DNA of 64,000 bases from the NCBI GenBank assembly GCA_016873655.1, contig VGWI01000004.1, positions 160-64,159 on the forward strand, given 5' to 3'. Positions 6,001-27,378 of this stretch are shown piece by piece. This DNA is from Lentisphaerota bacterium. Its GTDB lineage: Bacteria; Verrucomicrobiota; Kiritimatiellia; UBA8416; VGWI01. The position numbers and the translations under genes are program-made. The stretch's first letter is position 1, and each line of letters begins with the position of its first letter. Below the pieces are notes generated by a model that was not told the DNA's origin, searched no databases, and saw only the letters and a program-made list of their open reading frames with translations.

Positions 6001-9000
6001 GTGGAGCAAGGGCGGAACGATGAGCAACATCTTCAGGGTGGCTTACTCCCCCTGGCCGTATACCGCAGAGTACGACATCTTCTCCGGGGCCGCCGCCTAT
6101 GATTCGGAGAACAACAGCTACAGCGTGCCGTGGACTGTCCCTGACAGGCTCGGGCTGACCAGGATAATCGTCGAGAACCTGGACAAGCCGGTGATTCGCG
6201 ACGAGTCGGATATCTTCTACATCGTCGGCAGGTTCCAGGTTCTCTTCCCGAACGGAGGGGAGACGAGCCTCTACGCACGGAAGCCCGCCACGGTCAGGTG
6301 GTACACTTGGGGCGGCGTGTCTTCGGTTAATCTCTTCTACTCGATAGACCCGCTCCATGCGGACGATTCGTGGAAGAAGATCAACTCCTCGCCGGTTCCG
6401 GTAACCGGCTACGGGACCGAACCTTCGACGTACACCTGGACCGTGGCAGATGTCGGGACTACGATCAGTTCGGTGCGCCTGCGCGTGGAGCAGGCTGACA
6501 TGGCCGGCGCGCTTGACGACTCCGACGCCGACTTTTCGATCAACTACTACACCATCGTCTGGAACGTTCTCGATCAGCAGAGCGGCGAGCACCTGAACAA
6601 CCTGGTCCTGAGCGAAAGCACGGGCACTTCGCAGTCCGACCTGACCTCGCCGGTGACCCGCAGGTACCCGTACGGCCGCTTTGACTCAATCTGGTCGCGG
6701 CTGTACTTCTACGACTATGTCAGTTTCAACTGGCTGTCCGAGCCTTCGCGCGAGATCACGATCATGATGAAGCGGTCTGACGTGGAGGCCGAGTACAGGG
6801 TCATGGCGAACATCACTTACGAGGGCGGCGCGAACGACACACTCTCGGCCTACGCGTGGCTCGAGAGGGCGGGGCGCGTGATGCTCGACCCGTCGGAGTG
6901 CACGATCCTCATCTACGACAAGAACGGCGTTTCGGTCACCAACCTGGTGAACGCGTTGCCGCAGCCGGAGACGGGCGTGTTCCAGTTCAAGTGGGACCAG
7001 GTAACAAGTGTGCTTGCAAAGGGCGAGACCTACTATGCCCGCGTTGACATCAAGTACTCCCGGGAGACGTTCTCATCCGTCATCACCTACACGCTGCGCA
7101 TCTCGGCCGACCAGGCCGCCATTGACGAGATTTCGGCGGCGCTGGCTGTGGCGGAGACCAACATCACCGGCCGGATCGGCGGGGTGAGCAACGTTGTCCA
7201 GAGTCTGTCGGATGCCCAGGCCATGTTCAGGGCGAGGGTCACGAACCAACTTGACTCCATCTATGTCGGCACGGCGGACATGCGCACGAACCTGTCGGCC
7301 TTTGTCGGGTTGGCGACAGGCAGCCTGGCCCGTATAGAGGGCAGTGTTGACGTGATACTGCCCGGCGTGACGAATATCCGCGCGAGGCTGGCGCCTATCG
7401 AGGAAAACCTGGTGGCAACGCTTGCGCGCATCCTGACGCGGCCCGATTCGGTGGCCTTCGGTTCCACCAACCGCATCCTCTACAAGACCAGGGCCGACGC
7501 TCAGAACGTGACAATATCCATACCCGAGCTCAATCCCCCGTACAACGCGCCGATGACGATGGTGATAGCGGGCATATACGAGAAGGTGCTGATCGCCGAC
7601 TGGGGGACCAACAGCTATCGGGTTGTCTGTTCCGACGACAGGTCCAGCGACAGCATAATACTCAACGTCACCGGCGGGACCCTTGGCGGCATGCCGGGCC
7701 TGTTGAGTTCGATGAGCCACAGCCTCTCTGAAGTCCGCAGCAACGTTACCGAGATGACGACGATCATCCAGGGAATAGAGGGGCTGGACAAGCTCGGGAG
7801 CATAGCCACCAATCTGAATCCGCTCATCGAAGCCCTCGGTTCCGTTCCGTGGGGCGCGCTTTCGAACGTGAGCGACGTGGCCAGCTACCTGCCGGACATC
7901 TACACGACGGTCACAAACACCGATTACGTTGTCCGGAGCATCCAGAACCTGACCAACATCACCGGGATCGCGGACCAGATAACAAACCTCCAATCCGTTG
8001 TCCGCAGCATGCAGGATCTGGCCGACCTGCAGACAAACGTGGCTCTCCTCGTGAACTCGCTTGGCGGAGCCGACCTGTCCCAGCTTGGCAACACAATGTC
8101 CAACGTCGTCAGGGCGGTGGAGGACCTGGGTTCACTCAAGAGCGTGCAGGACCAGATAACCAACCTGACTGCCGCGGTGAGGAGCCTTGATGAACTGGCG
8201 GTTTTGCAGACGAACGTGGCCGCGCTTGCGCGGACGATGGTCGGGGTCAATTTCCAGGACTTCGGCGCCCAGATGACGAACATGGTTGCGGCGATCCAGA
8301 GCATGGGCGAGTTGCGCGACATTCAGGGGCAGATAACAAACCTGGCGTCGGTGGTTCGCGGCATGCAGGACCTGGCGGTGTTGCAGACGAACGTGGCTGC
8401 GCTCGTAACAACGATGAGCGGGGTGAACCTGTCGGTGTTCGGCCGGCAGATGACAAACCTGACGGCCGCGATTCAGAGCATGGGCGATCTGTCGAACGTG
8501 CAGGCCCAGATAACGAACCTGGTCTCCGTGGTGCGGGGGCTGGATGAGCTTGCCGGTTTGCAGACGAATGTCGCGGCCCTGGCGAGGACGATGGTGGGGG
8601 TGGACTTCGACGGTTTTGGCGTCCAGATGACGAACATGGTTGCGGCAATCCAGAGCATGGGCGAGTTGCGCGACATTCAGGGCCAGATCACAAACTTGGC
8701 GTCGGTGGTTCGCGGCATGCAGGACCTGGCGGTGTTGCAGACCAACGTTTCCGCGCTGGTTACCACGATGGGCGGCGTGAACCTCACGGTGTTCGGCCGG
8801 CAGATGACGAACCTTACGGCGGCAATCCAGAGCATGGGCGACTTGTCGAACGTGCAGTCCCAGATAACGAACCTGGTGTCTGTCGTGGAGGGGCTTGATC
8901 AGCTCGCCGCTCTGCAGACCAACGTCGCTTCGCTTGTGAGTTCCATGGGGGCCACCGACCTGGGCGTTCTCGGCCGTCAGATCACCAACATGACTGCGGC

Positions 9001-10282
9001 GATCAGGACAATGCAGGACTTGTCGGTGGTACAGGGGCAGATCACGAACCTGGTGAGCGCGGTCAGGGGGTTGCAGGATCTTGGTGTGATGCAGACGAAC
9101 GTCTCGGATCTCGTGACCATACTGCGCACCGTGGACATGAATGCGCTTGGCCGTCAGATGACGAACCTTGTCAGCGCCATTTCCGGGATGGACCAGATCG
9201 GGGACCTGCAGGCTGAGATAACGAACATGGTGGCCGTGTTGAGCGGGGTGGGCGGTCTGGAGCAGCTCGGAACGAACATCAACCGGCTGACGCAGTCGCT
9301 GTCGGGGTCGGATCTTCCCTACATAATGAAGTCGGTATCCAACACTTGGACAGTGGTGCGCGGGCTTGGCGACCTGTCCGGTCTCGAAACGGACATAGCC
9401 ACGCTCTCGGCGGCGGTCGGCGGAGTTGACCTGCCGCAGATGGAGAGTGACGTGGGTACCGTTCTTGGCCTGGTGCAGGGCCTGGGTGGGCTTGGGGCGC
9501 TTTCCACGAACGTGGCGGCGCTGTCCCAGGGGTTGTCCGGTGTGGACATGGCGGCGATGAACAGAAGCATAGCCGATACGCTCAGCCGGGTGCTTGGGCT
9601 GGAGACTGGAATGAGCAGGGTCCAGTCGGCGGTGGGAGGCATTGATCTCTCGGCAATAGATCTTTCCGCTGTGGAAAGGGTGGAGCGTTTGCTCGGAAGA
9701 TCCGGAAGCACTGACCGGAACACGTTCTTCGGCAGGTTGGCGCAGGTCAGCTCGCAGATGGAAGCGATGGGGCTTGCCTCTTCCGACGCCGCGAAGAAGG
9801 CGCAGTCCGCAAAGTCGGAGGCCGCCAATGCTGCAAGCGGGATAGACGAACTGAAGGCCGCACTCCAGAACATGCAGGGGCTCGATCCGCAGAAGCTGAC
9901 GGCCATTCTTGAACAGGTCCGGAGTTCGCTGGATGCCGCGCAGAAGGGAATCAGCGAGATCCCGAAGGGGCTTGATCCCGCTGCGCTGGAGAGGGCGCTG
10001 GCGGACGCACTGCGCAAATTCAGGCAGCTTGCCGCGCAGGGCGGGTACCCCGAATTCCCGCTGGTGACCGAGTTCGGGAGGGGTGCTCCGTCCGAGCCCG
10101 GCAAGGAACCAGCGAAAGGCGGACCTCCGACGGAAGCTGGCGAGGGGGTCGACATGAAGACCATCGCCAAGCTAAGCCGCGACATGGAGGAGATAGACAG
10201 TTCGGTGCGGCTGATCAAGCGCCTCATCGAGGAGAAGTTCCAGACTCCGGTTGTTGAGTCCAGGCTCATCGGAGTCGAGTAA
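2..10282 (+). CDS. Giant secreted/surface protein, 5'-truncated (>3420 aa): LamG/concanavalin-A-like domains, tandem Ig-like modules, C-terminal helical/coiled-coil repeats
   Basis: Frame is open from window start to TAA at 10280-10282. Three LamG-like units (WxH(V/I)AxV...(L/I)Y(L/I/V)(N/D)G...F.G.(L/V/I)DE(I/V)). About 9-10 modules with PNG(G)E.W...I.W...YS.DGG.TW. 59-aa TN-rich repeats near the C-terminus. Confidence 0.85.
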   Translation, partial: APGPGELGGKLFVGPDGTEGTFYSARNSDLQNSTAFSRIERYLQYKVYMIGQSDGKETPYLDSTGVIGTRSVAFDNTLGDFAVGAGLSGVVFVPGSEERGRLVLARNSNGGFRKDGYYTSRTFDAGISVFWDKLNWIGPSELAASSSMLGLWHVNGGWADATGKGRNGQALTNMAYYSKAKLGSQSAVFDGVSTRVSLPLPTNSIGAVEFWVNPAGADGGLMDFGGGRQFMVRGRMAAVTGFGFAGPLVYLNGRQNARLLERGWNHVAVVFPNGFAVSSPIVVGYAGGLWFRGMLDEIAMYSVALDGGAIKSHFLAGGGRAAGAAKFQVRASNTFPIPGIVPFVGPGNLPSDYFTASGAALPSEVWGKRYFQYRSFLEGDGDATPHVNSVSIEYSGAASGIETDGSAAQLLQGVFSNTKWLGTDQSPYDIATVPGLVNIDSVVEVSIEGLWHMDETNWAAGASVLDSSGKNRNGDPQGGASPSPAAKVGTASGLFNGSGQYVILPSADLAGDFTAGAWFRSTATARSAVMVRTDGGFILEINGNGSAAVAGAAAFIVQLPGKRAVATSAAASSLSDGAWHHIAGIRKGRGIYLYIDGTRVASALLASDFGGLGVGQMEVARNPETPPGYFAGNVDEVILYSRALSDAEIVEKTAVGFNIRNQVTFESTVYDADGPAIWESIAWGENGPFGDAPSASDPDLIGLWRLDSVTPGGVAVDSSAAAQNGAYSGSAAAGAGRFSGCMSLSGAGGGVTVTGSATLEPELVSISLWVNMTDVDSRALIEKRSGGNGYAIYTDASGRPSFWVNGSSCTWAGGMRASEWTHVAAVYDGQRIYLYVNGKQVADGLASGDFLGGNLLIGSSSSGYQGFTGLIDEVAVYKRAFVPEEAADHAKMGFGNIRIQARAGNSPDLSGVAYIGRDGTSGSFFDDSNESSMFGIVPLGQYFQFRYVMTVEDGLLAPIFSGAAIKQSAYPTDKPWVAPAVGQGQLFYGNLLGFNQKMGTNDNDRVRYQISGDEGANWYYWSASSWKKYSVSDGEPWNFANDYLTTSNRIVTFYQQLYAKSGGVFRFRAMLRSNGDDQVALDSVKMDYSEGRLVVLEPNGAETNQRAWLVDSPYTVKWSWRGVVSNNLRLQYSRDGGSTWSLIANGIPNTGSYSSWLTPPAASEQMLVKISDNNNSSIYDQSDSVFHLSDAFQIRAPNGGEVWYKSATNTIVWRSPGAAAARGALVDIRYSHDGVDFSQIIARGAPNVQGSSSNTFRWMIEPGVFPMPLPSASARIRVHAYDNTNPQFNGQDDSDLPFTLAGITVTAPVQGGYYNNGSDLTLQWVSRLGGPKVAMDFSRDNGVTWQTNVLTDVANVDGQNTYVWFINELPSDTARVRIRSLSDNRIYGVSGVFQLADVSVTSPSAGENWELRTQKTIRWESGGAGNLVDLYYSYDDGVTWTTIASNVFNTASNEYAWTVQPYPSDKARIRVVSHLDRTNLLDVSERFNIAGVKIEYPNTKVVWPKGGTDSIRWSYNQAGSQGAIYTSTDGGLTWQLLGNRGLGNRSINWQPTQPTARAMARIVSLDPPGWAVAMTDDSDEFFTIGGITVNAPTNAQLFTVGEPGQISWTSAGSADSGGGEYARLYYTTTGGATSNFIAEVGNNEIYPGNNVYTWNIPDTVSPSLNAQVMIKGGPFTGFSPVFTLRGMRITAPTDTSILDIGKVSKITWSSAGLDENANGYFFLSLDGGVTFEPAAINASPIYVASGFYDWNIPSNSTPSVRAVLKFVVQNSPKQSDINYQIKSRQFVLRGLKIKEPKTGSIWRHGSTNLIHLVASRAGDFATFYYSSDGTSYDTKPGNEVRKNWPLSDGDSYVPWTVEFSRLPSANARLKAVSTIATTYSEPFAVHGVKVTRPTSSSIWAAGETNIVTWTGVGTSGSYDVFVEKPGGPTVQIGVGVPGPTVNWLVDGSVVGEGVVVRVRDTSGQFVGVSAPFLVVAQPTVIVVSPASNDLWRVTDTYSVTWSKGGTMSNIFRVAYSPWPYTAEYDIFSGAAAYDSENNSYSVPWTVPDRLGLTRIIVENLDKPVIRDESDIFYIVGRFQVLFPNGGETSLYARKPATVRWYTWGGVSSVNLFYSIDPLHADDSWKKINSSPVPVTGYGTEPSTYTWTVADVGTTISSVRLRVEQADMAGALDDSDADFSINYYTIVWNVLDQQSGEHLNNLVLSESTGTSQSDLTSPVTRRYPYGRFDSIWSRLYFYDYVSFNWLSEPSREITIMMKRSDVEAEYRVMANITYEGGANDTLSAYAWLERAGRVMLDPSECTILIYDKNGVSVTNLVNALPQPETGVFQFKWDQVTSVLAKGETYYARVDIKYSRETFSSVITYTLRISADQAAIDEISAALAVAETNITGRIGGVSNVVQSLSDAQAMFRARVTNQLDSIYVGTADMRTNLSAFVGLATGSLARIEGSVDVILPGVTNIRARLAPIEENLVATLARILTRPDSVAFGSTNRILYKTRADAQNVTISIPELNPPYNAPMTMVIAGIYEKVLIADWGTNSYRVVCSDDRSSDSIILNVTGGTLGGMPGLLSSMSHSLSEVRSNVTEMTTIIQGIEGLDKLGSIATNLNPLIEALGSVPWGALSNVSDVASYLPDIYTTVTNTDYVVRSIQNLTNITGIADQITNLQSVVRSMQDLADLQTNVALLVNSLGGADLSQLGNTMSNVVRAVEDLGSLKSVQDQITNLTAAVRSLDELAVLQTNVAALARTMVGVNFQDFGAQMTNMVAAIQSMGELRDIQGQITNLASVVRGMQDLAVLQTNVAALVTTMSGVNLSVFGRQMTNLTAAIQSMGDLSNVQAQITNLVSVVRGLDELAGLQTNVAALARTMVGVDFDGFGVQMTNMVAAIQSMGELRDIQGQITNLASVVRGMQDLAVLQTNVSALVTTMGGVNLTVFGRQMTNLTAAIQSMGDLSNVQSQITNLVSVVEGLDQLAALQTNVASLVSSMGATDLGVLGRQITNMTAAIRTMQDLSVVQGQITNLVSAVRGLQDLGVMQTNVSDLVTILRTVDMNALGRQMTNLVSAISGMDQIGDLQAEITNMVAVLSGVGGLEQLGTNINRLTQSLSGSDLPYIMKSVSNTWTVVRGLGDLSGLETDIATLSAAVGGVDLPQMESDVGTVLGLVQGLGGLGALSTNVAALSQGLSGVDMAAMNRSIADTLSRVLGLETGMSRVQSAVGGIDLSAIDLSAVERVERLLGRSGSTDRNTFFGRLAQVSSQMEAMGLASSDAAKKAQSAKSEAANAASGIDELKAALQNMQGLDPQKLTAILEQVRSSLDAAQKGISEIPKGLDPAALERALADALRKFRQLAAQGGYPEFPLVTEFGRGAPSEPGKEPAKGGPPTEAGEGVDMKTIAKLSRDMEEIDSSVRLIKRLIEEKFQTPVVESRLIGVE
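7960..9300 (+). repeat. Intragenic tandem repeat, 59-aa (177 bp) unit with a higher-order 118-aa (354 bp) near-identical duplication
   Basis: QMTNMVAAIQSMGELRDIQGQITNLASVVRGMQDLAVLQTNV... begins at 8270 and again at 8624 (offset 354 bp) with near-identical DNA; about 6-7 progressively diverged units. Boundaries approximate. Confidence 0.85.
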
Positions 10283-10359
10283 CGGCCGATCACGCCGTGC
10301 ATCGGGGCTTTTTCAATTGCGGTGTCGCCATGCGTGCCGGTAGCATCCTTCACAGTCCA

Positions 10360-11676
10360 ATGATGAATACGCCAGTCATACCGTGCGTTCGACAGTTGGC
10401 GTGCATGTTCTCCTGCGTATTGTTTCTTGCCGCCTGGGGCATGCCGGCTTCGGGAGCCACGGTCAGGTTGCGCATCACGGTTGTCAATCCCCGCGAGACG
10501 AACCAGGTTGCCGATGTGCGTGCCAATCTCCCCGCTCGTGTGGGAACGAATGATGTTGTCAGCTGGGGCGGGCTCGACTGGGGCTACGACACCAGGAACG
10601 ACATCTACTATGTGCACAAGAAGGTCGAACTGGGCCCCAAAGAGGGCAGGGTGTTCGATATCGACATCCGTGATATATGGACGATCGAACCGGGCGAGAT
10701 AGACGGCATCAATCGGCATGCGGGGGCTCTTGTGGACAAGCTTCGCGGCGCGGAGGTCCACGCAACCGCAACCGAGTTGCAGAAGCTCATAGAGAAGAAC
10801 CTTGCCGACATTCTGGAGCGGCAGGACAAGTTCGCGATCGGGCCGGGGGTGGAGGCCATACAGCACATCAATGCCTACGAGACCAACCTGGGCATGCTCA
10901 GGCGGGTCAAGAGGGACGTGGGGATGATAGAGAACCTTGTGCTGGGGACAGGGCAGGACATAGGGGAGATGGTCGGAGAGAGCAAGCTCCTCGCGAAACC
11001 GGAACGGGGCGAAGATTCGGAACCCGCTGAATACAAGACGGCCATCATGGAATTCACGGTGGTCAACCCTTCGGTATCCGAGAAGAAACAGGCCGTTGTA
11101 CGCGAGAGCCTTCCGGAAGAGGTGAAGATATACGATGTACTGGAAGCCGGAGAGCTCGAAGTCGGTGCGGACTACAACACCGGGATGTGCTACGTCTACA
11201 AGGAAGGGATAGACCTGGCGCCCGGCGAGAAGAAGACATTCCGCGTGACGATAAGGGACAAGTGGGATGTCAACGGGCCGAGGGTGGCATCCCTGATTGC
11301 CTCGGCCAGCAACCTGCTTTACAGGGTGGAGGTCCGGGGGCGTTACAAGGGCGTGGAGGAAGCGATATCCGGAGTTCTTGGCGGGCTTCTTGAGATAAGG
11401 GGTGAAGAGGGGCCGACGGCCGTGAATGACGCGTATGTCGCATTCTTTCGTGAGCAGACCGCAAGGGTTGACATTCTGGAGCAGAAACTCAGGCGCGTTG
11501 AGGCCGCTTTGCGGCCGATAGAGCGGAAGTCCAAGTGGGGTTTTGCGGTCCAGGCGCCCAGCAAGAAGACCACATGGCTCATCATCTACATAGTCCTTGG
11601 CTTCCTGGGTTTCTTCAGTGTACTTTTCTTCCTGAGGTGGTACGGAAAGAGCAAGAGTGAGAAACTGGGCCTGTGA
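10360..11676 (+). CDS. Exported protein with an internally duplicated domain and a C-terminal transmembrane anchor (start uncertain, 10297-10384)
   Basis: Signal-peptide-like N-terminus (...FLAAWGMPASG). Two copies of TVVNP...LP..V...D(V)...G.L..G.D......Y(Y)V.K...L.P.E...F...IRD.W. C-terminal WLIIYIVLGFLGFFSVLFFL followed by basic tail RWYGKSK. Confidence 0.75.
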   Translation: MMNTPVIPCVRQLACMFSCVLFLAAWGMPASGATVRLRITVVNPRETNQVADVRANLPARVGTNDVVSWGGLDWGYDTRNDIYYVHKKVELGPKEGRVFDIDIRDIWTIEPGEIDGINRHAGALVDKLRGAEVHATATELQKLIEKNLADILERQDKFAIGPGVEAIQHINAYETNLGMLRRVKRDVGMIENLVLGTGQDIGEMVGESKLLAKPERGEDSEPAEYKTAIMEFTVVNPSVSEKKQAVVRESLPEEVKIYDVLEAGELEVGADYNTGMCYVYKEGIDLAPGEKKTFRVTIRDKWDVNGPRVASLIASASNLLYRVEVRGRYKGVEEAISGVLGGLLEIRGEEGPTAVNDAYVAFFREQTARVDILEQKLRRVEAALRPIERKSKWGFAVQAPSKKTTWLIIYIVLGFLGFFSVLFFLRWYGKSKSEKLGL

Positions 11677-11779
11677 GGCCGTTTCTCAGCAGTCTTGCCG
11701 CTGCCGCGAGCCGTACTTCCATCCGTCGGTCTTCCGGCGCGGGGTCTTCACAGTGTCTTTTTGACGGGGGAGATGTGGT

Positions 11780-13243
11780 ATGCCGTTGAAGATCAACCCG
11801 ATAAAGCTCATCGAGCACGGGGTTGTTGCGGAGATCCGGCAGGATGTCGTGCACGTGACCGGGCTGACCAACTGCATGAACGGGCAGTTGGTGAACATCG
11901 GGGTTTCGGCGCAGGGGGTGATTGTCGGGTTTGACCCGGACTACGTGCTCGTGCTTGTTGTCCGCGAGGGCGCCCCGATCAAGCCCGGTGACGCCGTAAT
12001 CACGACCATAGACCAGTTCCGTGTTCCTGTCGGGGAACGTTTCATCGGCCGGAGGCTGAACGCCCTGGCAGAGCCGGCGGACAACGGCGGTCCGATACGC
12101 GAGGATGGCGCCAACCCGATCTTCGGAGCTGCGCCGGGCGTGCTCGAACGGGTTCCGCTGGCGCAGGTTCTCGAAACCGGCACGAAGATAATCGACATGA
12201 CTTTGCCGATAGGAATGGGGCAGCGCATGTTGATCATCGGCGACCGCACCACCGGCAAGACTACCGTCGGGGTCGATGCGATCATGAACCAGAAGGGCAA
12301 GGACGTGGTCTGCATCTACTGCTGCATAGGCAAGGCGGAGGCGGCGCTTGCCAAGGTGACGGAGTCTTTCGACAAGGGGCGCGTCTGGGACTACGGAATG
12401 ATCGTTGCGGCAACCGCTTCGGACCCGATGGGGCAGCAGTATCTGGCCCCGTACGTGGCGTGCAGTCTCGGCGAGTACTTCATGTACACGAAGGGGCGCG
12501 ACGTCCTCGTTGTTTTCGACGATTTCACGAAGCACGCGTGGGCTTACCGCCAGATATCTCTGTTGCTGGAGCGAGCGCCGGGCCGTGACGCGTATCCCGG
12601 CGATATATTCTATATACACTCCCAGCTTGTTGAGCGCGCGGGGAAGCTCAACGCGGCACGCGGCGGCGGGTCCATGACGCACCTGCCCATTGTCGAGACG
12701 CTGCAGGGCGACGTCGCAGGCTATATTCCATCCAACATCATTTCCATGACCGACGGACAGGTGTACATGAATTCCCTGCTGTTCGGCGAGGGATTCAAGC
12801 CGGCAATTGACATGGGGCTTTCTGTCTCGAGGATCGGCAGCAAGGTTCAATGGAAAGCGATGAAGAAGCTTAGCGGAATGCTCAAGCTTGAGTATGTGCG
12901 ATACAAGGAACTTGAGAAGCTTACCCGGATCAAGGCCGGAGTGTCGGGTGAGGTCGAAAGGCGTTTGAATCGCGGCAAGGTTCTTGAAGAAGTCCTGAAG
13001 CAGGACGCGAACGAGCCGGTTGCGATGGAGGACGAAGTCATGATCCTCTACGCGCTTGAGCGCGGGCTGCTGGACAAGGCCGATCCTCCGCAGGTGAGGG
13101 GAATCCTGGCTGAGTTCATACGCCGGGTAAGGACGAGGCACCCCACGCTGCCGGCGGAACTGTCCCAGAAGAAGGAACTGACCGAGCCGATCAAGGAGGC
13201 GCTCAACAATGAGCTTGCGGGGCTCTCCCATACCGCTGTTTAA
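11780..13243 (+). CDS. atpA: F1-ATPase alpha-like subunit, paralogue 1 (arginine finger intact)
   Basis: Walker A GDRTTGKTT, DDFTKHAWAYRQISLLL.R.PGRDAYPGDIFY, IISMTDGQ, SVSRIG; GGAG RBS upstream. Confidence 0.92.
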   Translation: MPLKINPIKLIEHGVVAEIRQDVVHVTGLTNCMNGQLVNIGVSAQGVIVGFDPDYVLVLVVREGAPIKPGDAVITTIDQFRVPVGERFIGRRLNALAEPADNGGPIREDGANPIFGAAPGVLERVPLAQVLETGTKIIDMTLPIGMGQRMLIIGDRTTGKTTVGVDAIMNQKGKDVVCIYCCIGKAEAALAKVTESFDKGRVWDYGMIVAATASDPMGQQYLAPYVACSLGEYFMYTKGRDVLVVFDDFTKHAWAYRQISLLLERAPGRDAYPGDIFYIHSQLVERAGKLNAARGGGSMTHLPIVETLQGDVAGYIPSNIISMTDGQVYMNSLLFGEGFKPAIDMGLSVSRIGSKVQWKAMKKLSGMLKLEYVRYKELEKLTRIKAGVSGEVERRLNRGKVLEEVLKQDANEPVAMEDEVMILYALERGLLDKADPPQVRGILAEFIRRVRTRHPTLPAELSQKKELTEPIKEALNNELAGLSHTAV

Positions 13244-14696
13244 GATCAAGGTCCAGGAAAAGGGCCGGATCAAGGACATCAAGGAGATAATTGTCCGCAT
13301 AGATGGTCTTCCGACGTGTCTGAACGGCCAGATCGTTGACCTCGGTGAAGGGGTCAAGGGAATCGTGATGGGATACGACGAGCAGGAGGTCCTTGCCCTT
13401 GTGCTTGGCGATCCGGGCAAGCTCAGGATGGGCCGGGAGGTGGCGGGAGTCAGTGAGCCGTTCCAAATCCCGGTCAGTGATGCAGTGATAGGCCGGATGG
13501 TTTCGGCGCTCGGGTATCCGTGTGACCAGGGGCAGCCGGTCGAGCCGGAGTCATTTGCGCCCGTATTCAAGGACTCGCCGCCGATCACGCACAGGGATCC
13601 GGTTACGCAGTTTCTGCCAACCGGCACGAAGATGGTGGATATCTTCATCCCCATCGCCAAGGGTCAGCGGCAGTTGATTCTCGGCGACAGGATGACCGGC
13701 AAGACGGTCATAGCGCTGGATGCCATCATAAATCAGGTCGGGCGGAACGTGATCTGCATCTTCTGCTGCGTCGGGAAGTCTGTCTCTTCTCTGCAGAAGG
13801 CCATGTCGATTCTGCACGACAACGATGCGTTGTCCTACACGGCGGTGATAGTCGCAACCGACAGTTCGCCGGTGGGTGAGCAGTACATAGTTCCGTTTGC
13901 GGCTGCCTCCATGGCGGAGCATTTCGCGGCCAAGGGGCGTGACGTGCTCGTGGTGTTTGATGACCTTACCAAGCATGCGTGGGCCTATCGCCAGCTCTCG
14001 TTGCTCCTGGACAGGCCGCCAGGCCGTGAGGCGTATCCCGGCGACATATTCTATGTGCAGACTCAGCTCATGGAGCGGGCTGGTCAGTTCAATGCGGAGC
14101 ACGGCGGCGGGTCAATCACCTACCTGGGGATCGCGGAGACGTTGCAGGGCGACCTTACAGGTTATATCCCGTCCAACCTGGCCTCCATGTGTGACGGGCA
14201 GGTATGCATGAGCAGCACCATCTTCGCGGAGGGATTCCGCCCGGCGGTCGATATCTCGCTTTCTCTGTCGATCGTCGGCGGAAGAGCCCAGCCGCCGGTT
14301 CTCAAGAAGCTGAGTCGCGACATACGGGCTGACTACGCGAGATATTCTGAAGTGGTGAAACTGAGCAGGATGGGGTCCGGCCTGTCCGAAGAGGCCGAGA
14401 AGACGATCAAGAAGGGCGAAGCGATAGTCTCGATTCTGCAGCAGGGGCAGCACGCTCCTGTTTCGCTTTCGGAGGAAGTGTTCCTTCTGTATGCCCTGCA
14501 CGCCGGCATGCTTGCGCCTCTGGACCGCGAGGAGAAGACGCGCTTCACGAAGGGGATCGCCGGGTTCGCGGCAGAGAGAATGCCCGGGCTCGCGTCGCGG
14601 ATTGAAGCTGAAGCAGAGCTCACTCCGGAAATCGAGGAGAGTCTGAGGAGTCTGCTGGAGGCCTATTTCGGCCGGAAGCCTGGCGGGGGCGGGTGA
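13209..14696 (+). CDS. atpA: F1-ATPase alpha-like subunit, paralogue 2 (arginine finger replaced by Ile)
   Basis: Walker A GDRMTGKTV, DDLTKHAWAYRQLSLLL.RPPGREAYPGDIFY; SLSIVG where canonical alpha has SVSRVG; overlaps paralogue 1 by 35 bp. Confidence 0.9.
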   Translation: MSLRGSPIPLFKIKVQEKGRIKDIKEIIVRIDGLPTCLNGQIVDLGEGVKGIVMGYDEQEVLALVLGDPGKLRMGREVAGVSEPFQIPVSDAVIGRMVSALGYPCDQGQPVEPESFAPVFKDSPPITHRDPVTQFLPTGTKMVDIFIPIAKGQRQLILGDRMTGKTVIALDAIINQVGRNVICIFCCVGKSVSSLQKAMSILHDNDALSYTAVIVATDSSPVGEQYIVPFAAASMAEHFAAKGRDVLVVFDDLTKHAWAYRQLSLLLDRPPGREAYPGDIFYVQTQLMERAGQFNAEHGGGSITYLGIAETLQGDLTGYIPSNLASMCDGQVCMSSTIFAEGFRPAVDISLSLSIVGGRAQPPVLKKLSRDIRADYARYSEVVKLSRMGSGLSEEAEKTIKKGEAIVSILQQGQHAPVSLSEEVFLLYALHAGMLAPLDREEKTRFTKGIAGFAAERMPGLASRIEAEAELTPEIEESLRSLLEAYFGRKPGGGG

Positions 14697-14920
14697 AACT
14701 GACGATCTTGAATCCCAAGCACGTGATTTTCGAGGGCGACGCGTCGAGCGTGTTCCTGCCTGGCGATCTCGCGGAGTTTGAGATACTGGACCATCACGCT
14801 CCGATTGTGAGCCTGCTTGTCAAGGGCGAGATAGTGGTGGACTGGCACCGCAGGATACCCATACGGCAGGGGATGGTCAGGTTCGACAGGAACGAGTGCA
14901 TGGCTCTGGTAGAGGAATAG
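14693..14920 (+). CDS. atpC: F1 epsilon-like subunit, N-terminal beta-sandwich only (75 aa)
   Basis: MKLTILNPKHVIFEG...V.LPG..AEFEIL.HHAPIVSLL.KG matches the epsilon N-domain; GTGA overlap with the alpha2 stop. Confidence 0.85.
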   Translation: MKLTILNPKHVIFEGDASSVFLPGDLAEFEILDHHAPIVSLLVKGEIVVDWHRRIPIRQGMVRFDRNECMALVEE

Positions 14921-14944
14921 ACCGTCTGCGCCTGGAGGGCGGGC

Positions 14945-15160
14945 ATGGACAAGTTCGTAATATTTCTGGTGATGTTCGTGACGATTATCGGCCCATCGGC
15001 CGTGATAGCGGCCATCGGGTACGCGAGCATACGGGCGCTGGGGCGCAACCCCTCGGCTGCAAACAAGATACTGCAGGCCATGATTGTCGCCCTGGTATTT
15101 GCCGAGGCGATAGCGGTGGTTGCTTTGCTCATACTGTTCCAGTTGTTTGCTGGAACATAG
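14945..15160 (+). CDS. atpE: Fo subunit c-like proteolipid (71 aa)
   Basis: Two hydrophobic helices, RNP loop, conserved carboxylate in VFAEAIA; GGAGG RBS. Confidence 0.88.
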   Translation: MDKFVIFLVMFVTIIGPSAVIAAIGYASIRALGRNPSAANKILQAMIVALVFAEAIAVVALLILFQLFAGT

Positions 15161-15213
15161 GTGAATAGGCAGCCCGGGCGAACGGCCGGGGCCGCCGCAT
15201 GGAGGCGGGGAGC

Positions 15214-15960
15214 ATGCGAGAAATCATACGAATACTGATGCCGGTGGCGCTGACTTATGTGGCTGCGACAGCGCTGATGGTGTTCGCCATAAGGCGTCTG
15301 CTGCTGGGGGATACGCGCAGGGCAATGGCCAAGATCCGTGAAGTCGAAGGCGAGGTGCGCCGGAAGGAGGAGCGGATCAGGGCCGAAATCGCCGAGCACG
15401 AGCGTGACTTCGAGGCGAGAAAGATCGAGGCCCAGGAATCCATGGAGCGGCAGCGCAAGGAATCCGAGAAAGAGATGGCCAAGGCAAGAGAAAAAGCCCT
15501 GGCTGATGCCCGCAAGGAAGGTGAGCGCATAATCGATCAGGCGAGGAAGAACGAAGAGAAGCTGAGACAGCAGATAGCCCAGGACATGGAAGAGAAGGCC
15601 GTGGAATACGGCGGCAGGATATTTAAGCTTGTTTTCAGCGAGGAAATGAACGTCGAGCTCAATCGCAAGTTCATTGAGGAACTGTTGAACGCCCTTGATG
15701 AGGTGGACAGCTCAAGCATCACCGTGGATGCGGACGATGCCGTGTTCAAGAGCAGTCATCCACTTGAGGAAGAGCAGAAGGAACGGCTGAAGGAGCTCCT
15801 GAAGAACAAGTTCGGGGCTGACGTGGAGATCAACGAGACAATTGACGAAGCGCTGCTGGCCGGTCTTTCGTTCAAGCTGGGCAGTCTTGAGATAGATGGC
15901 AGCCTGCTGAGCCGGTACCATGAGGCGGTTTCGGAAGTGAAGAAGGGTATAGGCACCTGA
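15214..15960 (+). CDS. atpF: Fo subunit b fused to a delta/OSCP C-terminal-like domain
   Basis: One N-terminal TM helix, long charged coiled coil, C-terminal S.HPL...Q...L...L...FG......IDE.LLAG....LGS.EIDGSL typical of the delta C-terminus. Confidence 0.8.
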   Translation: MREIIRILMPVALTYVAATALMVFAIRRLLLGDTRRAMAKIREVEGEVRRKEERIRAEIAEHERDFEARKIEAQESMERQRKESEKEMAKAREKALADARKEGERIIDQARKNEEKLRQQIAQDMEEKAVEYGGRIFKLVFSEEMNVELNRKFIEELLNALDEVDSSSITVDADDAVFKSSHPLEEEQKERLKELLKNKFGADVEINETIDEALLAGLSFKLGSLEIDGSLLSRYHEAVSEVKKGIGT

Positions 15961-16013
15961 CATGGCGCTGCCGGCCGTCAGGCGGCCGTTGATTTCGGTT
16001 TGAGGCATGCCGG

Positions 16014-16949
16014 ATGCAACTTAGCGAACTCCGCAAGGAACTGAAGTTCAACCGCGAACTTGTGCAGCTCATTGAGACGCTCAAGAATATCGCGGCTGCC
16101 CAGTATCACCTGATGGAGAAGGAAAAGGAGCGGTTCGACCGCTTCATGGGTGCTTTTGCGGGTTTCTTCCGGGTCGTCAACCTTGTTGAGACGGCCAATC
16201 CGCTGGTGCGGTCGGCGTCGGACACGCTGGGGCTGGTCGTGATCACTTCCGATTCCGGGTTCATGGGCGGGCTTAACCAGGGAGTGATACGGGCTGCCCT
16301 TGCAGCGCAGGGCGAGACGCCTGACGAGAAGACGGCGCTTGTCGTTGTGGGGGAGAAGGGGCAGACGGCCTTCGCAGACATGGGCAGGGCTTTCAGGTTC
16401 TTTCCGGGAATAAGCCAGGAGACGATCTACGAGCAGGCTGTGGAGATAAAGGACCACATAGTGGAAGAGGTGCTTGCCGGCAGGATGGGCAGAGTTCTTC
16501 TGGCGTATCCGAAGCCCCTGTCCTTTTCGGCTCAGGACATAGACGTGATCAGGGTGCTGCCGTGCGGAGACCTGATATCCGTCGAGGATGAGCCCGGGGA
16601 AGGAGCGCAGGCCTCGACGACATTGCGCGGATTCATGCAGGAGTCGCTTGGGGTGATCGTGGAGTCGTCTTTCGCCGACATGGCGCAGTACCTGGCAAGC
16701 ACGTGGGTTACAAGCAAGCTTTACGAGGTGTTCGAGGACAGCAAGCTCGCGGAATTTTCCGCGAGGGCCATGCATCTCGAGGGAAGTTTCCAGAAGCTTG
16801 AGGAACAGTTGAAGAAGGTGCGGCACCAGACTTTCAAGGCCTCGCATGAGAAGATCGACAAGGGCATGCGCGAGAGCTTCGGCGCCAAGAAGGGGATGAA
16901 GAGAAGACGCAGGGGTGCAACGCAGCCGCAGGCTGCGGCTGACGCCTAG
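16014..16949 (+). CDS. atpG: Divergent F1 gamma subunit
   Basis: N-terminal helix ending NIAAAQY; VITSDSGFMGGLN (canonical SDRGLCG.FN); AEFSARAM (canonical SE..ARM); C-terminal helix. Confidence 0.85.
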   Translation: MQLSELRKELKFNRELVQLIETLKNIAAAQYHLMEKEKERFDRFMGAFAGFFRVVNLVETANPLVRSASDTLGLVVITSDSGFMGGLNQGVIRAALAAQGETPDEKTALVVVGEKGQTAFADMGRAFRFFPGISQETIYEQAVEIKDHIVEEVLAGRMGRVLLAYPKPLSFSAQDIDVIRVLPCGDLISVEDEPGEGAQASTTLRGFMQESLGVIVESSFADMAQYLASTWVTSKLYEVFEDSKLAEFSARAMHLEGSFQKLEEQLKKVRHQTFKASHEKIDKGMRESFGAKKGMKRRRRGATQPQAAADA

Positions 16950-18383
<1,434 letters not shown>

Positions 18384-18424
18384 GCTTTTCTCCGGTTGCG
18401 TGACCGGGGCCGCGGCATCTGAAT

Positions 18425-20059
18425 ATGAACAAGCTGGGACAACGCCTTGAGGCGGATGGGCTGCTCTCCGCGGAGCGTTTCGAGGAGGCGGCGGCACGGG
18501 CCAAGGAAAGCCGGCGGCCGCTTCCTGACGTGCTCCGGGATGACAGCTACGTTGCCGAGGGGCCTCTGCTCAGCGCTCTCGGCAAGGTCTACGGGCTTCA
18601 GGTCGTTGATCTTGACGACGACACGCCGGTTGACCAGTCCGCCGTGAGATCCATCCCGCCGAGGCTCGCAACCCACTACTGCGCCATGCCGATGAAACTG
18701 GAAGACGGGGTCATAACGCTGGCGGTCTCCAGCCTTTCCGACATGGCTGTCGTTGATGATCTTGAGACCAACCTGGGCTTGAGGGTCGATCGGGTTCTTG
18801 CCACCCGGGCTGGCATCCAGCGTGCGATAAGGCGGCACTACGGAGTCGGCGCAGGCACGGTCGAACGCATACTCGGAGAGGACAGGCCGGGCGAGGCGTC
18901 CCATATGGAGACGTCGCATGATCTGGAACTCATGGCCGAGGATGCGTCGGTTGTCCGCCTTGTCAACCAGATCCTGCAGGACGCCATACGGGACAGGGCA
19001 ACCGACATACACCTGGAAAGCTACAGAGACGAGATGCTCTGTCGCAGGCGGATAGACGGCGTCCTGCAGGAGACGAGTTTGCCGCGAAGCATCCGGCAGC
19101 TCTATCCTGCCATGGTGTCCCGGATCAAGCTGATGTCCGGACTCGACATAGTCGAAAGACGTCTGCCCCAGGACGGGAGAGCCCGTGTCAACATGGGGCG
19201 TGAAGAGTTCGACCTGCGGGTCTCCATAGTCCCGGCAGTGCACGGGGAGGACATCGTCATAAGGGTCCTGCCGACACGGTCGATGCTCAACCTGGGCGAT
19301 CTCGGGTTTTCCGGGGCGCACAGGGCGGAGTTGGAGAAGTACATAGCGATGCCGCACGGCATCGTCTTTGTGACCGGTCCGACTGGAAGCGGGAAGAGCA
19401 CCACTCTCTACGCATGCCTCAACCGGCTGAACACTCGCGACCACAAAATTATCACCATCGAGGACCCAGTCGAATATGAAGTGAGAGGGGTAACGCAGAC
19501 GCAGGTCAATCCGAAGATAGGTCTCACCTTCGCCCGGGCGCTGAGAAGCATGTTGAGACACGATCCGGACGTCATGATGGTTGGCGAGGTGCGTGACCGT
19601 GAAACGGCGGATATTGCAGTACAGACGGCCATGACGGGACACCTGGTGCTCAGCACTCTCCACACGAACGATGCTGCCGGGGCTGCGGTGCGTCTGATGG
19701 ATATGGGCGTTGATCCTTACCTGATAACTTCGACGGTTCTGGTGTTCATCGCGCAGCGGTTGGTACGGGTGATCTGCCCGGAGTGCAGGGAGGCGGTTCG
19801 GGAAGCGGGGATTACGAGGTATCGTGGAGCCGGCTGCAAGACATGCGGACGGAGCGGGTACTTCGGCCGTGCTGCTGTTGCCGAGTTTCTCCCGATGCTT
19901 CCGGCCATCGCGGGCCTGATCATGGGCAAGGCATCCGCACGTGAAATACGAGCGAAGGCGGATGAGCTTGGGATGCAGACTCTTCTGCAGGACGGTCTGC
20001 GGAAGGTTGAGGACGGTATCACGACCGAGCAGGAGGTCTTCCGCGTTATCGTAGCGTAG
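18425..20059 (+). CDS. gspE: Type II secretion/type IV pilus assembly ATPase (GspE/PulE/PilB family)
   Basis: ATDIHLE, ERRLPQDGR, GPTGSGKSTT, TIEDPVEY, LRHDPDVMMVGEVRD, TGHLVLSTLHTND, CPEC...CKTC zinc motif. Confidence 0.95.
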   Translation: MNKLGQRLEADGLLSAERFEEAAARAKESRRPLPDVLRDDSYVAEGPLLSALGKVYGLQVVDLDDDTPVDQSAVRSIPPRLATHYCAMPMKLEDGVITLAVSSLSDMAVVDDLETNLGLRVDRVLATRAGIQRAIRRHYGVGAGTVERILGEDRPGEASHMETSHDLELMAEDASVVRLVNQILQDAIRDRATDIHLESYRDEMLCRRRIDGVLQETSLPRSIRQLYPAMVSRIKLMSGLDIVERRLPQDGRARVNMGREEFDLRVSIVPAVHGEDIVIRVLPTRSMLNLGDLGFSGAHRAELEKYIAMPHGIVFVTGPTGSGKSTTLYACLNRLNTRDHKIITIEDPVEYEVRGVTQTQVNPKIGLTFARALRSMLRHDPDVMMVGEVRDRETADIAVQTAMTGHLVLSTLHTNDAAGAAVRLMDMGVDPYLITSTVLVFIAQRLVRVICPECREAVREAGITRYRGAGCKTCGRSGYFGRAAVAEFLPMLPAIAGLIMGKASAREIRAKADELGMQTLLQDGLRKVEDGITTEQEVFRVIVA

Positions 20060-20082
20060 GACCGAGGTTCCGGCAGGCTGCC

Positions 20083-21297
20083 ATGCCGCACTACAGATAC
20101 ACAGCCAAGGATGGTCCGGACCGGATTGTTTCAGGATCCGTCAGGGCTGAATCCAGACAGGACGCCGTAGCGAAGGTTGACGCCATGGGGTACAGTCCCG
20201 TATCCGTCGCCGAGGCGGCGGAGGATGGCGGGCCGGCCCGGGACACGGCGGCGGCCGGGCGCCGGCCTTCGCGGAGCAGCGTTACTCTCTTCACCCGGCA
20301 GCTTGCGAGCCTTCTGCGGTCAGGTGTTCCGATTCTCAGGGCGCTGCGCACCATATCGGAACAGAGCGAGGATGCCCGGATGAAGGCTGTAGTCCTGGCG
20401 CTGGAGTCCAGTGTCCGCGACGGCAGAAGCATTTCGGATGCGATGTCGGAGCATGGCAGATCGTTCTCCGACTTCTACGTCAACATGGTCAGGACAGGTG
20501 AAGGCGGCGGCGTGCTGGATGTCGTGCTCTCGCGCCTGGCCGACGCCAGGGAGGCCGAGGATGACCTTCGAAGGCATGTTCAGTCGGCGTTGGCGTATCC
20601 TCTCCTTGTTGCCGCAGCCGGCTGTGTCACTGTGTTTGTTCTTCTGGCATTCTTCCTGCCGAGAATGGCCGAACTGTTCAGCAGCTATCGCCAGCTTCCC
20701 TTTGCCACGCGCGCGTTGATAGCCGTGAGCGGCGCGGTTTCCCGATGGTGGCCGGTGGTCTTGCTGCTGGCCGTCTTCGTGTTCGCCGTGCTCAAGAGGC
20801 TTGCATCGGTTGACAGGGGGCGGATGGTGATGGACAGGTTGAAGCTGAGGGTGCCCTTCTTCGGTCACGTGATCAGGGACTCCGACGTGGCCAGGTTCGC
20901 CCGCACTCTGGCGCTGTTGCTTGACAGCGGGGTAAAGGTGGACAAGGCGATGGACCTGTGCGCGGGCACCGTGCGCAACGCTGTTCTTGAGGCCGGGGTT
21001 CGCGGCGCGCGTGACGCGACCGTCAGAAGGGGGCTTCCTTTCTCAGACGGCATTCGCGGAGCCGAAGGCTTTCCTCTTTTTGTCGCCAACATGGCTGCCG
21101 TTGGCGAGGAGGGCGGACGGCTCGACGAAGCACTCCTGGAGGTGGCAAGTTACTACGAGAAAAGGGTCGCTCAGCAGACCCGTATCGCCGCAAGTCTCAT
21201 CGAGCCGGCAATGATACTTGCAGTCGGAGCCGTTGTGGGTTTCATAGTGGCCGCGATGTTGCTGCCGGTGTTCGAGATAGGAACGACGCTGAAATAG
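20083..21297 (+). CDS. gspF: Type II secretion system inner-membrane platform protein F (GspF/PilC family)
   Basis: FTRQLASLLRSGVPILRAL, GEGGG.LD.VL.RLA, ALAYP, GEEGGRLDE.L, LIEP...LLPVF; three TM segments. Confidence 0.95.
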   Translation: MPHYRYTAKDGPDRIVSGSVRAESRQDAVAKVDAMGYSPVSVAEAAEDGGPARDTAAAGRRPSRSSVTLFTRQLASLLRSGVPILRALRTISEQSEDARMKAVVLALESSVRDGRSISDAMSEHGRSFSDFYVNMVRTGEGGGVLDVVLSRLADAREAEDDLRRHVQSALAYPLLVAAAGCVTVFVLLAFFLPRMAELFSSYRQLPFATRALIAVSGAVSRWWPVVLLLAVFVFAVLKRLASVDRGRMVMDRLKLRVPFFGHVIRDSDVARFARTLALLLDSGVKVDKAMDLCAGTVRNAVLEAGVRGARDATVRRGLPFSDGIRGAEGFPLFVANMAAVGEEGGRLDEALLEVASYYEKRVAQQTRIAASLIEPAMILAVGAVVGFIVAAMLLPVFEIGTTLK

Positions 21298-21383
21298 GCG
21301 TTCAACAGGCTTTGGGGTTTACTTGGCGTGCACAGCCGCGTAGATTCAGGCAGGGGCAGGCGCGTAGATGCGGGGAGGCAGCG

Positions 21384-21797
21384 ATGACTCAGTCGAGGCC
21401 GGATTCAGGTTTCACACTGATCGAAATACTCGTGGTGGTCATCATTCTCGCTGCTCTGGCTGGTATGGTGCTCCCGCGGGTGATCCCGAGGGCAGACGAG
21501 GCCAGGCGCGACATCGCGCGCGGGGAGATAGCCGGGATATCGACTGCCCTGAACTTCTTCCGGCTGGACGTGGGGCGGTATCCAAGCACGGAGGAGGGTC
21601 TCGCGGCCCTTATGGCGTCCCCGTCAGGCAGCAGCCGGTGGAAGGGCCCGTACCTGGAGAAGCGGCCTGACGATCCTTGGAGCAAGCCCTACGCGTACAG
21701 GTATCCGGGGTCCCATAACCCTTCGGGTTTCGATGTGTGGTCTCTCGGACCGGACGGGCAGGAAGCCACTCAGGACGATGTCGGCAACTGGGAGTGA
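21384..21797 (+). CDS. gspG: Major pseudopilin GspG
   Basis: G|FTLIE prepilin motif, F.LDVGRYPSTEEGL.AL, WKGPYL, DPW..PY.Y..PG, SLGPDG...DD.GNW; GGAGG RBS. Confidence 0.93.
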   Translation: MTQSRPDSGFTLIEILVVVIILAALAGMVLPRVIPRADEARRDIARGEIAGISTALNFFRLDVGRYPSTEEGLAALMASPSGSSRWKGPYLEKRPDDPWSKPYAYRYPGSHNPSGFDVWSLGPDGQEATQDDVGNWE

Positions 21798-22853: not shown

Positions 22854-22870
22854 TGGGCGGGGGTGGACAC

Positions 22871-23614: not shown

Positions 23615-23689
23615 TTCTGGCTCGTCGGCAAGCCGGCTTGCATGGCATTGCTGAGAGTTGGGTCGGTGTGGGGAATTGGCCGAAGACAG

Positions 23690-25656: not shown

Positions 25657-25714
25657 CCATCGGGGAACGCGTGGCAGTCGCGCCGTACTGTCCGCATGCG
25701 GGGTCAGGATCGAA

Positions 25715-27142: not shown

Positions 27143-27378
27143 TGACGCGGCATGCTGCCGATCGGAGTGCAAAGTGGTGAAATGCAGCCGATTAGCCGCT
27201 GGATTCCTGTGTGGGCCAGCTGTGGTGTCAGGATGTCGCGAATGCCTCGGAATCGATTCGGGATCCGTTTTGGGTTGACTTGCGGCGTAGCTACGTGCGA
27301 CACTAGTGCCGTGATGAGGGATGGAAAGAGGCATTGAGACGATCAAGAAAACAGCGTGTTCGGGATGCAGGTGAGACC

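Follow-up and report, generated by a model that had tools for sequence, protein, structure and literature searches.

What does the c-ring of a rotary ATPase do when the genes around it encode no subunit a? This question is raised by a stretch of 64,000 nt (the window) from contig VGWI01000004.1 of the Lentisphaerota bacterium assembly GCA_016873655.1, in which a cluster of F-type-like ATPase genes stands between the genes of two envelope proteins, a giant protein and its neighbour X459, and a gene set like that of a type II secretion system (T2SS). Open reading frame (ORF) calls, Pfam and NCBIfam profile matches and a hydropathy scan were the basis for assigning the genes, and every F-type subunit except a could be assigned in the cluster. 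We show below that the lack of subunit a is conserved among relatives, and that the c subunit has repeatedly lost the carboxylate of its ion-binding position while the remainder of the protein stayed nearly constant. With about even confidence, we read the cluster as encoding an ATP-hydrolysing F1 motor whose c-ring would be a rotor or anchor uncoupled from ions and serving the adjacent envelope machinery.

Absence of subunit a and conservation of the cluster

An initial annotation of the window had reported no polytopic, subunit-a-like ORF between 10.3 and 20 kb. A hydropathy scan of positions 10.3-32 kb bears this out over the longer range: the only polytopic ORF is that of GspF (20083-21297), and the cluster has no subunit a gene. 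When the whole genome was searched with the subunit a profile PF00119, as had been suggested there, a single match was returned, at C13:24635-25270, where it adjoins the housekeeping c gene; none lay with the cluster. To place these results, we compared 41 genomes of the window's order, a 401-genome sample of the phylum, a scan of species representatives and a set of 83 gamma-distinct loci. All of the compared genomes are metagenome-assembled genomes (MAGs) or single-amplified genomes (SAGs), 63-97% complete, and more than 500 gamma-bearing contigs exist.

Across the 83 loci, gaps of at least 450 nt between the X459 and GspE genes contained no ORF with two or more hydrophobic segments. Within the membrane part of the cluster, epsilon and c are at most 188 nt apart, c and b-delta at most 289 nt, and b-delta and gamma at most 381 nt, which leaves no space for a subunit a gene. 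PF00119 matches were present in 27 of the 41 same-order genomes, 25 of which also hold the cluster; in none of these 25 did cluster and match share a contig, even where the cluster contigs reached 197 kb and 397 kb. A divergent atpB close to the cluster, for example upstream of the giant gene, had been considered at the outset and was not found in the 20-kb flanks of two relatives (G016 and G008), where the only polytopic ORFs encoded a 7TMR-HD protein on each downstream side and a GT2 glycosyltransferase upstream in G008.

The remaining ten of the 35 cluster-bearing genomes (G010, G014, G017, G021, G022, G024, G033, G034, G036 and G037) gave no PF00119 match. Their completeness is 72-93%, with five at 90-93%, and they include both members of families f23 and f25. 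In the same ten genomes the sole match to the atpD model TIGR01039 is the cluster's own B (483-571 bits, housekeeping betas scoring 655-845 bits), and V-type-like c matches are found instead. Since two independent markers of the housekeeping F1Fo enzyme are missing together, their chance loss through incomplete assembly is unlikely. In a control search, PF00119 matched nine of 14 reference genomes. The cluster ATPase is thus independent of any atpB.

A gamma orthologue was present in 35 of the 41 same-order genomes (18 of the 21 of high quality). The 401-genome sample gave 12 strong gamma matches, the window's own included, comprising five from the window's order, six from other orders of the class (families f43, f45 and f50) and one divergent sequence (G212, family f26); the remaining 14 matches were housekeeping gammas with E about 1e-9. 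Gamma was found in 24 of 27 families to which the 401 sampled genomes belong, a figure that was counted by hand from strong matches and is not firm. The scan of species representatives found 91 relatives, of which 80 loci were kept, all from MAGs or SAGs, labelled Lentisphaerota (29), Kiritimatiellota (17), Verrucomicrobiota (16) or left unlabelled (18).

The gene order giant protein, X459, A1, A2, epsilon, c, b-delta, gamma, B, GspE, GspF, GspG...GspL, GspM was the same in ten of ten loci from different families and in four of four loci from other orders, one of them cut by a contig end. As far as contigs reach, 82 of the 83 gamma-distinct loci are collinear, the exception being G212; an apparent inversion in L029 was an artefact of ORF calling. 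The recurrence of this order, and of the lack of subunit a, in 82 of 83 loci shows that the arrangement is not due to chance. Over the ten same-order and four other-order loci, c is the best conserved cluster protein (80-91% identity) and B is 69-82% identical, values by which we ruled out a decaying relic.

The divergent cluster of G212 (loci L114, G212:C82, and L128, G212:C112) has a different order: epsilon, b-delta, A1, A2, gamma and B come after histidine-kinase and response-regulator genes, and a second epsilon, together with c, is convergent to this set, behind a sigma-54-type regulator. The two epsilons are 67 and 84 aa long. Histidine-kinase and response-regulator genes, one of sigma-54 type, flank the cluster on both sides, and next to the ATPase genes there is none for X459, for subunit a or for a T2SS component. 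By this layout, the a-less ATPase is a module of its own, which became joined to the T2SS-like cluster in the larger branch.

Two local variations were also seen. In locus L095 the otherwise compact cluster is interrupted twice, between gamma and B and between GspE and GspF, by insertions (825 nt and 1118 nt) with small ORFs of 102-141 aa that lack a hydrophobic segment; they may be a small mobile or toxin-antitoxin-like element. Some related loci have a stretch (for example L013:14904-15677 and L018:15215-16027) with the recurring start ...EWQVIKGKHF..., which is missing from the window, where the gap spans positions 21298-21311.

Subunit c and its carboxylate

Subunit c (14945-15160) is a protein of 71 aa with one helical hairpin (PF00137, 25.9 bits against a cut-off of 24), in which Glu54 (15104-15106) occupies the ion-binding position. 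Among 63 distinct orthologues the loop GRNPSAA (Gly33 to Ala39) is invariant, the second helix is mostly 95-100% conserved and the mean column identity is 85%. Position 54 stands out from this background: it is Glu in 54 orthologues, Met in five and Gln in four, and the losses require at least seven changes on a tree of B plus gamma built for 66 loci. The nine loci with Met or Gln have otherwise intact clusters, and the c of G212 has Gly at the carboxylate position. By our own count, single-hairpin housekeeping c subunits of the same order kept the Glu in 28 of 28 cases. A ring whose hairpin c subunits are all of one kind has no ion site left once the carboxylate is lost. Because the carboxylate has been replaced at least seven times while the rest of c remained about 85% identical, the c-ring is probably not an ion turbine. 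This lends support to the initial view that the ring is uncoupled from ion flux.

That view had been accompanied by the suggestion of a co-evolution analysis of c against its membrane neighbours. A co-variation scan of 13 cluster proteins (among them X459, A1, A2, epsilon, b-delta, gamma, B, GspE, GspF, GspG, GspL and GspM) found no column that tracks the loss of Glu54, and no candidate stator Arg or Lys emerged from it. The best column was altered in five of the nine carboxylate-less loci, through conservative substitutions. A prediction of the complex between four copies of c and residues 390-448 of X459, run without controls, scored 0.00, a value that speaks neither for nor against a contact.

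Three loci (L033, which is G037:C39, L051 and L056) have no A2 gene, and epsilon comes straight after A1. A search of the three genomes for an A2 orthologue in another place gave none, the best match being A1 itself at 42-43% identity. All three have a c without the carboxylate (Met, Gln and Gln), and they represent two separate lineages on the tree; the loss of A2 and the loss of Glu54 may be linked, although on two events only. A separate F-type/N-type operon of a relative, L129 (G005:C59:29821-33012), encodes a fused multi-hairpin c in which the early hairpins lack Glu and the last has an E-S-T motif. It is adjoined by a single-hairpin c that also has E-S-T.

Head, stalks and envelope neighbours

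Throughout positions 2-27142 of the window, every large ORF lies on the + strand, with gaps that are short or overlapping. The gap is 24 nt between epsilon and c, 53 nt between b-delta and gamma, and between c and b-delta either 38 nt (first ATG, 15199) or 53 nt (second ATG, 15214). Of the gaps of 24, 53 and 53 nt first reported around c and b, the outer two thus stand and the middle one holds from the second ATG. The stretch that had been described as c and b does contain c; it also holds epsilon, and its b proved to be a fusion of b with delta. Within positions 9800-27500, one promoter-like site was found against 4.6 expected, and 21 terminator-like hairpins against 12.3 expected, none of them convincing, so it is only from their shared direction and short gaps that the genes are taken to form an operon. 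Between b-delta and gamma, at 15972-15988, a G+C-rich hairpin of seven pairs precedes a T-rich tail; it might act as a partial terminator or as a processing site by which the proportion of membrane subunits to head subunits is set.

Three proteins would make up the head. A1 (11780-13243) and A2 (13209-14696) are alpha-like, with PF00006 matches of 235 and 225 bits respectively and a PF00306 match for A1, and both carry the nucleotide-binding and C-terminal domains of the alpha/beta family; against the TIGR00962 cut-off of 484.45 bits, A1 scores 516.8 bits and A2 falls below it at 466.3 bits. B (16980-18383) is the catalytic, beta-like protein (TIGR01039, 534.4 bits against a cut-off of 462.85). 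The best matches in the PDB are F1 alpha for A1 (E 2.7e-134) and A2 and F1 beta for B, with E in the range 1e-120 to 1e-138. B has kept its P-loop and the motif GERIREG in 74 of 74 sequences. A1 has a P-loop and an arginine finger, within a motif (SVSRIG) found in 64 of 64 sequences, and in A2 the position of the finger is Ile or Val (SLS[IV][IV]GGR in 67 of 67). Both alpha-like proteins start 10-18 residues later than F1 alphas, whose N-terminal tail is the part that binds delta.

The gamma-like central stalk is encoded at 16014-16949 (PF00231, 104.2 bits). Epsilon (14693-14920) is a protein of 75 aa that consists of the N-terminal beta-sandwich domain only (PF02823, 43.2 bits, profile positions 1-78 of 80) and lacks the helical domain at the C-terminus; the median length in 80 orthologues is 76 aa. 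The b-delta fusion (15199-15960, with a possible start at ATG 15214) has 253 aa, one transmembrane (TM) helix and a match to the OSCP/delta family (PF00213, 41.6 bits). Its AlphaFold2 (AF2) model, with a predicted local distance difference test score (pLDDT) of 89.9, has one helix spanning residues 4-145 and, after a short helix, an alpha/beta domain at 181-251. In Foldseek searches the last 65-74 residues match the C-terminal domains of delta/OSCP with a root-mean-square deviation of 1.2-2.5 A, and the whole protein resembles subunit E of V-type enzymes. The N-terminal domain of delta is absent from the model, and together with the short tails of A1 and A2 this indicates that this domain and the alpha tails belonging to it are missing together.

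In the same genome, the alpha, gamma and beta genes of a housekeeping enzyme are located on C2 and a V/A-type set on C16. B and the housekeeping beta share 46% identity, A1 and A2 are 43% and 40% identical to the housekeeping alpha and 44% identical to each other, and gamma is about 26% identical to its housekeeping counterpart, orthologous gammas being 55-69% identical among themselves. In a beta tree from a quick search, with long branches, the cluster B sequences, that of G212 included, formed one clade (Shimodaira-Hasegawa-like approximate likelihood ratio test, 99) whose stem is long; the housekeeping betas of the order fell outside it, in two clades of their own. A1 and A2 are sisters when set against the housekeeping alpha. 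Beside the housekeeping F1Fo and the V/A-type enzyme, the cluster adds a third, F-type-like ATPase to the genome, and it represents a separate, old paralogue lineage.

Upstream of the ATPase genes lies the gene of the giant envelope protein (2-10282), which has at least 3426 aa, since its 5' end is cut by the start of the window and contig, and carries LamG, BNR and Ig-like domains (PF13385, 175.7 bits; PF02210, PF10342 and PF02012). It is followed by X459 (10330-11676, alternative start 10297), which matches no Pfam or NCBIfam family. The AF2 model of X459 (pLDDT 90.7) shows an N-terminal helix (signal or anchor), a seven-strand beta sandwich plus three-helix bundle that occurs twice, and a C-terminal TM helix. 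Trp416, Phe425, Leu426, Ser430 and Trp437, in or beside this helix, are invariant in 54 sequences. X459 is a membrane-anchored protein of the periplasm, and its C-terminal TM helix is conserved. Foldseek found no match to the fold in the PDB at E<=1e-3, and in a wide VIA-align search the matches were to generic three-helix bundles only (Z<=9.9), at residues 115-216 and 309-401; since this search hardly touched the beta sandwiches, X459 is not assigned to any fold. The X459 gene, present in 32 of the 41 genomes, always lies directly upstream of A1 (55 loci), and a homologue of the giant protein is encoded upstream of it in 32 loci.

At E<=1e-3, an X459 profile matched 991 representative proteins in public data. 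Three repeats are present in many of them, and in some the match is the C-terminal part of a protein of 1167-2029 aa; X459 belongs to a large family of uncharacterised envelope anchors. In G212, a 1193-aa protein (G212:C28, L162:8216-11797) combines a giant-like N-terminal part with an X459-like C-terminal part, a fusion which argues that the giant protein and X459 act together. X459-like modules form the C-terminal 400 residues of this protein and of a 1572-aa protein at L163:8420-13138 (G029:C6).

Downstream of B, the T2SS-like set begins with a GspE/PilB-type ATPase with an MshEN N-terminal domain (18425-20059; PF00437, 428.9 bits; PF05157, 62.6 bits) and the GspF/PilC platform protein (PF00482, 201.3 bits). 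Positions 21312-25656 then encode GspG, two further N-methyl proteins (one GspJ-like), a 290-aa single-TM protein, a GspL-like PilM/PilN fusion and GspM (PF08334, 116.9 bits; PF07963, PF11612, PF05137, PF11104 and PF04612), and a MORN-repeat protein gene lies downstream of GspM. The T2SSE, T2SSF, T2SSG, N_methyl and PilN matches pass the Pfam gathering scores; T2SSM, PilM_2 and T2SSJ fall below theirs, as do the NCBIfam models for GspE (538.2 of 630.25 bits) and GspF (338.1 of 424) below their cut-offs. With a GspE ATPase, a GspF platform, pseudopilins and GspL/M, the set has the components by which type II secretion or type IV filament systems are recognised. A GspE orthologue (54-64% identity) was present in exactly the 35 gamma-bearing genomes, the other six having only paralogues of 43-44% identity, a co-presence that is not a statistical test because the relatives are not independent.

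The N-terminal region of GspE (18425-18850), where the MshEN match falls, gives a weak match to an MshE-related motif for cyclic di-GMP binding (NF053729, 19.3 bits, under the cut-off of 38), and the T2SS-like machine may be under cyclic di-GMP control. No secretin (PF00263) is encoded on contig C4, and eight matches lie elsewhere in the genome. This 3.1-Mb genome (G000), with its eight secretin matches and eight GspE-family matches at E<=1e-60 (relatives have 4-12 of the latter), points to many systems of type IV filament type.

Possible functions and comparison with known systems

How might such a complex work? In the uncoupled motor that we favour, a head of A1, A2 and B would be combined with a rotor of gamma, epsilon and the c-ring and with a single stalk in which b is fused to the C-terminal domain of delta, without subunit a. 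Since the beta-like subunit is intact and epsilon lacks the inhibitory C-terminal domain, the complex would be expected to hydrolyse ATP. The motor would then turn, or twist against, an ion-free c-ring acting as a lipid-embedded rotor or anchor, and the work would be passed to the envelope machinery, either X459 with the giant protein, the T2SS-like platform, or both.

Several points weigh against this proposal. Rotation, the load and the anchoring of the stator are put forward by analogy only. A2 lacks the arginine finger, so a head that holds it may not rotate as a normal F1 does. Glu54 is kept in 86% of orthologues, above what a neutral membrane-buried site would show, and it may still matter in most lineages. 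The layout of G212 implies that members of the family need not be physically linked to the T2SS-like machine. Finally, the evidence that subunit a is lacking consists of two markers missing from MAGs and SAGs, not of closed genomes, and within the cluster it is limited by the simple window method of the hydropathy scan.

To our knowledge, F-type c-rings are known only as ion turbines that work against subunit a. A natural, widely conserved c-ring that lacks subunit a and is able to lose its carboxylate, while its sequence remains about 85% identical from order to order, implies a second, non-ionic job for the Fo rotor. It also offers a way into the questions of how rotary ATPases are rewired, whether two different ATPases can drive T2SS-like machines, and what the many giant genes of Lentisphaerota and Kiritimatiellota do. 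A more specific form of the idea, which we consider tentative and on balance unlikely, is that an ATP-driven F1/c-ring motor would crank a type IV filament-like apparatus together with a giant, inner-membrane-anchored, adhesin-like protein without any ion gradient. By analogy, it would then be a diderm counterpart of the gliding motor of Mycoplasma mobile, which consists of an F1-like ATPase and giant 'leg' proteins, and an ATP-powered analogue of the GldLM rotary motor of type IX secretion and gliding and of the archaellum. Its c-ring would be the first case known of an Fo rotor put to use purely as a mechanical shaft.

Another explanation gives the complex no turning part. The F1-like head might be a docking, unfolding or gate-activating ATPase in the manner of FliI-FliJ-FliH, with the c-ring and b-delta as a tether only. 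Such an arrangement would suit genes that sit in a secretion-system operon and a b-delta built like FliH or V-type subunit E, with a long helix and a delta-like C-terminal domain; it would also suit two alphas without 10-18 N-terminal residues, and an A2 whose missing arginine finger would break three-fold turning. It is doubtful, however, given that the rotor contacts (gamma, the epsilon N-terminal domain and the c loop) have all been kept and are highly conserved, that the FliI and SctN models score far below their cut-offs, and that the T2SS part has GspE as an ATPase of its own; a c-ring would also make a costly tether.

The complex might also be an ion-translocating rotary enzyme in which a non-homologous cluster protein, a GspF trimer or the X459 TM helix, supplies the half-channels and the stator. 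A Glu at position 54 in 54 of 63 c orthologues, a nearly invariant outer c helix, which fits a protein partner, and the strongly conserved X459 TM helix are what such an enzyme would lead one to expect. The available excerpt of a study of PulF (PMC10790770) assigns Tyr-Pro and Glu-Pro pairs to a trimeric ion channel and proposes that GspF-family trimers conduct protons or sodium, and the cluster GspF has kept both pairs (Tyr171-Pro172 and Glu373-Pro374). These residues are, however, general to GspF/PilC and not special to the cluster, and the protein looks like an ordinary GspF. Moreover, nine orthologues from at least seven lineages, plus G212, lack the carboxylate in intact clusters with one c gene, and no conserved charged residue of X459, b-delta or GspF is lost with it, which makes ion translocation improbable. 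Least credible is subunit a supplied in trans, with the housekeeping atpB product serving both enzymes: the window's genome has one atpB, on C13, as do 25 of the 35 cluster-bearing relatives, but ten cluster-bearing genomes have neither a PF00119 match nor a housekeeping beta, the cluster c could be aligned to the housekeeping c over only 36 residues (42% identity), and the carboxylate losses in c argue against it, so this suggestion of the initial annotation was not upheld.

The uncoupled motor can be set beside rotary and secretion ATPases that are already known. With canonical F1Fo enzymes it shares alpha and beta types, gamma, the epsilon N-terminal domain, a c of hairpin form whose loop reads R-N/Q-P, and a b helix anchored in the membrane. 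It differs in having no subunit a, no delta N-terminal domain, no epsilon C-terminal domain and short alpha N-terminal tails, in its two alpha paralogues, one without the arginine finger, in a c carboxylate that is not invariant, and in the order alpha-alpha-epsilon-c-b/delta-gamma-beta inside a secretion operon. By F-type membership, B and A1 score above the F1 beta and alpha cut-offs and A2 below; subunit a, an invariant c carboxylate and the delta N-terminal bundle were not found.

N-ATPases are likewise a second F-type set, in which delta has no gene of its own and b is long, at about 250 aa, and b-delta matches positions 47-235 of 246 of the N-ATPase model TIGR03321. The N-ATPase operon includes atpQ, atpR and subunit a in its order, and the c that it encodes has a full Na+ site. 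In the cluster, all ORFs from X459 to GspE are assigned, which leaves no room for atpQ and atpR; neither these nor subunit a were found there, and the matches to alt_F1F0 models (466.6 of 750.5, 491.2 of 752, 24.8 of 282.35 and 42.8 of 224.7 bits) all remain below their cut-offs. The part of the N-ATPase literature consulted (PMC4154653) describes delta as missing and b as extended, and its text makes no mention of Lentisphaerota or Kiritimatiellota. A full-text literature search, with supplements outside its reach, found no description of an F-type ATPase without subunit a, whether in a T2SS cluster or in either of these two groups.

FliH-FliI-FliJ, in the available text of bioRxiv 10.1101/2021.01.01.425057, offers a likeness of another kind, namely a head derived from ATP synthase, a stalk and a b/delta-like tether within a secretion machine. 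The cluster differs in being of hetero-hexamer type, with true alpha and beta, epsilon and a c-ring, and in a partner of type II, not type III; FliI and SctN models score 152-180 bits, the cut-offs being about 600.

The Type 2 (gliding G1-ATPase) and Type 3 'F1-like X0' enzymes of Mycoplasma are the nearest parallels in function, alike in having sets of alpha, beta, gamma and epsilon without a, and in a non-bioenergetic function at the cell envelope. As described in the accessible part of PMC12994834, their genes lie with that of a large protein in which a signal peptide is combined with TM segments at the C-terminus, and the enzymes power large surface proteins or the MIB-MIP system, a layout which that of X459 and the giant protein resembles. 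The cluster is set apart by its retention of c and b-delta, its two alpha paralogues, its T2SS-like set and its occurrence in diderms of the Planctomycetes-Verrucomicrobia-Chlamydiae (PVC) group. It also lacks the 12-TM X0 protein, for which the hydropathy scan found no ORF in the cluster, and the MMOB1660/1670 and MSC_0618/0619 models reach 387.5 of 600, 415.2 of 850, 293.4 of 520 and 386.2 of 570 bits, all below cut-off. The cluster adds to the short list of recruited ATP-synthase modules, so far made up of the type III secretion ATPase and the mycoplasma Type 2 and Type 3 enzymes, and would be the first such case in diderms as well as the first with ties to a type II/type IV filament system.

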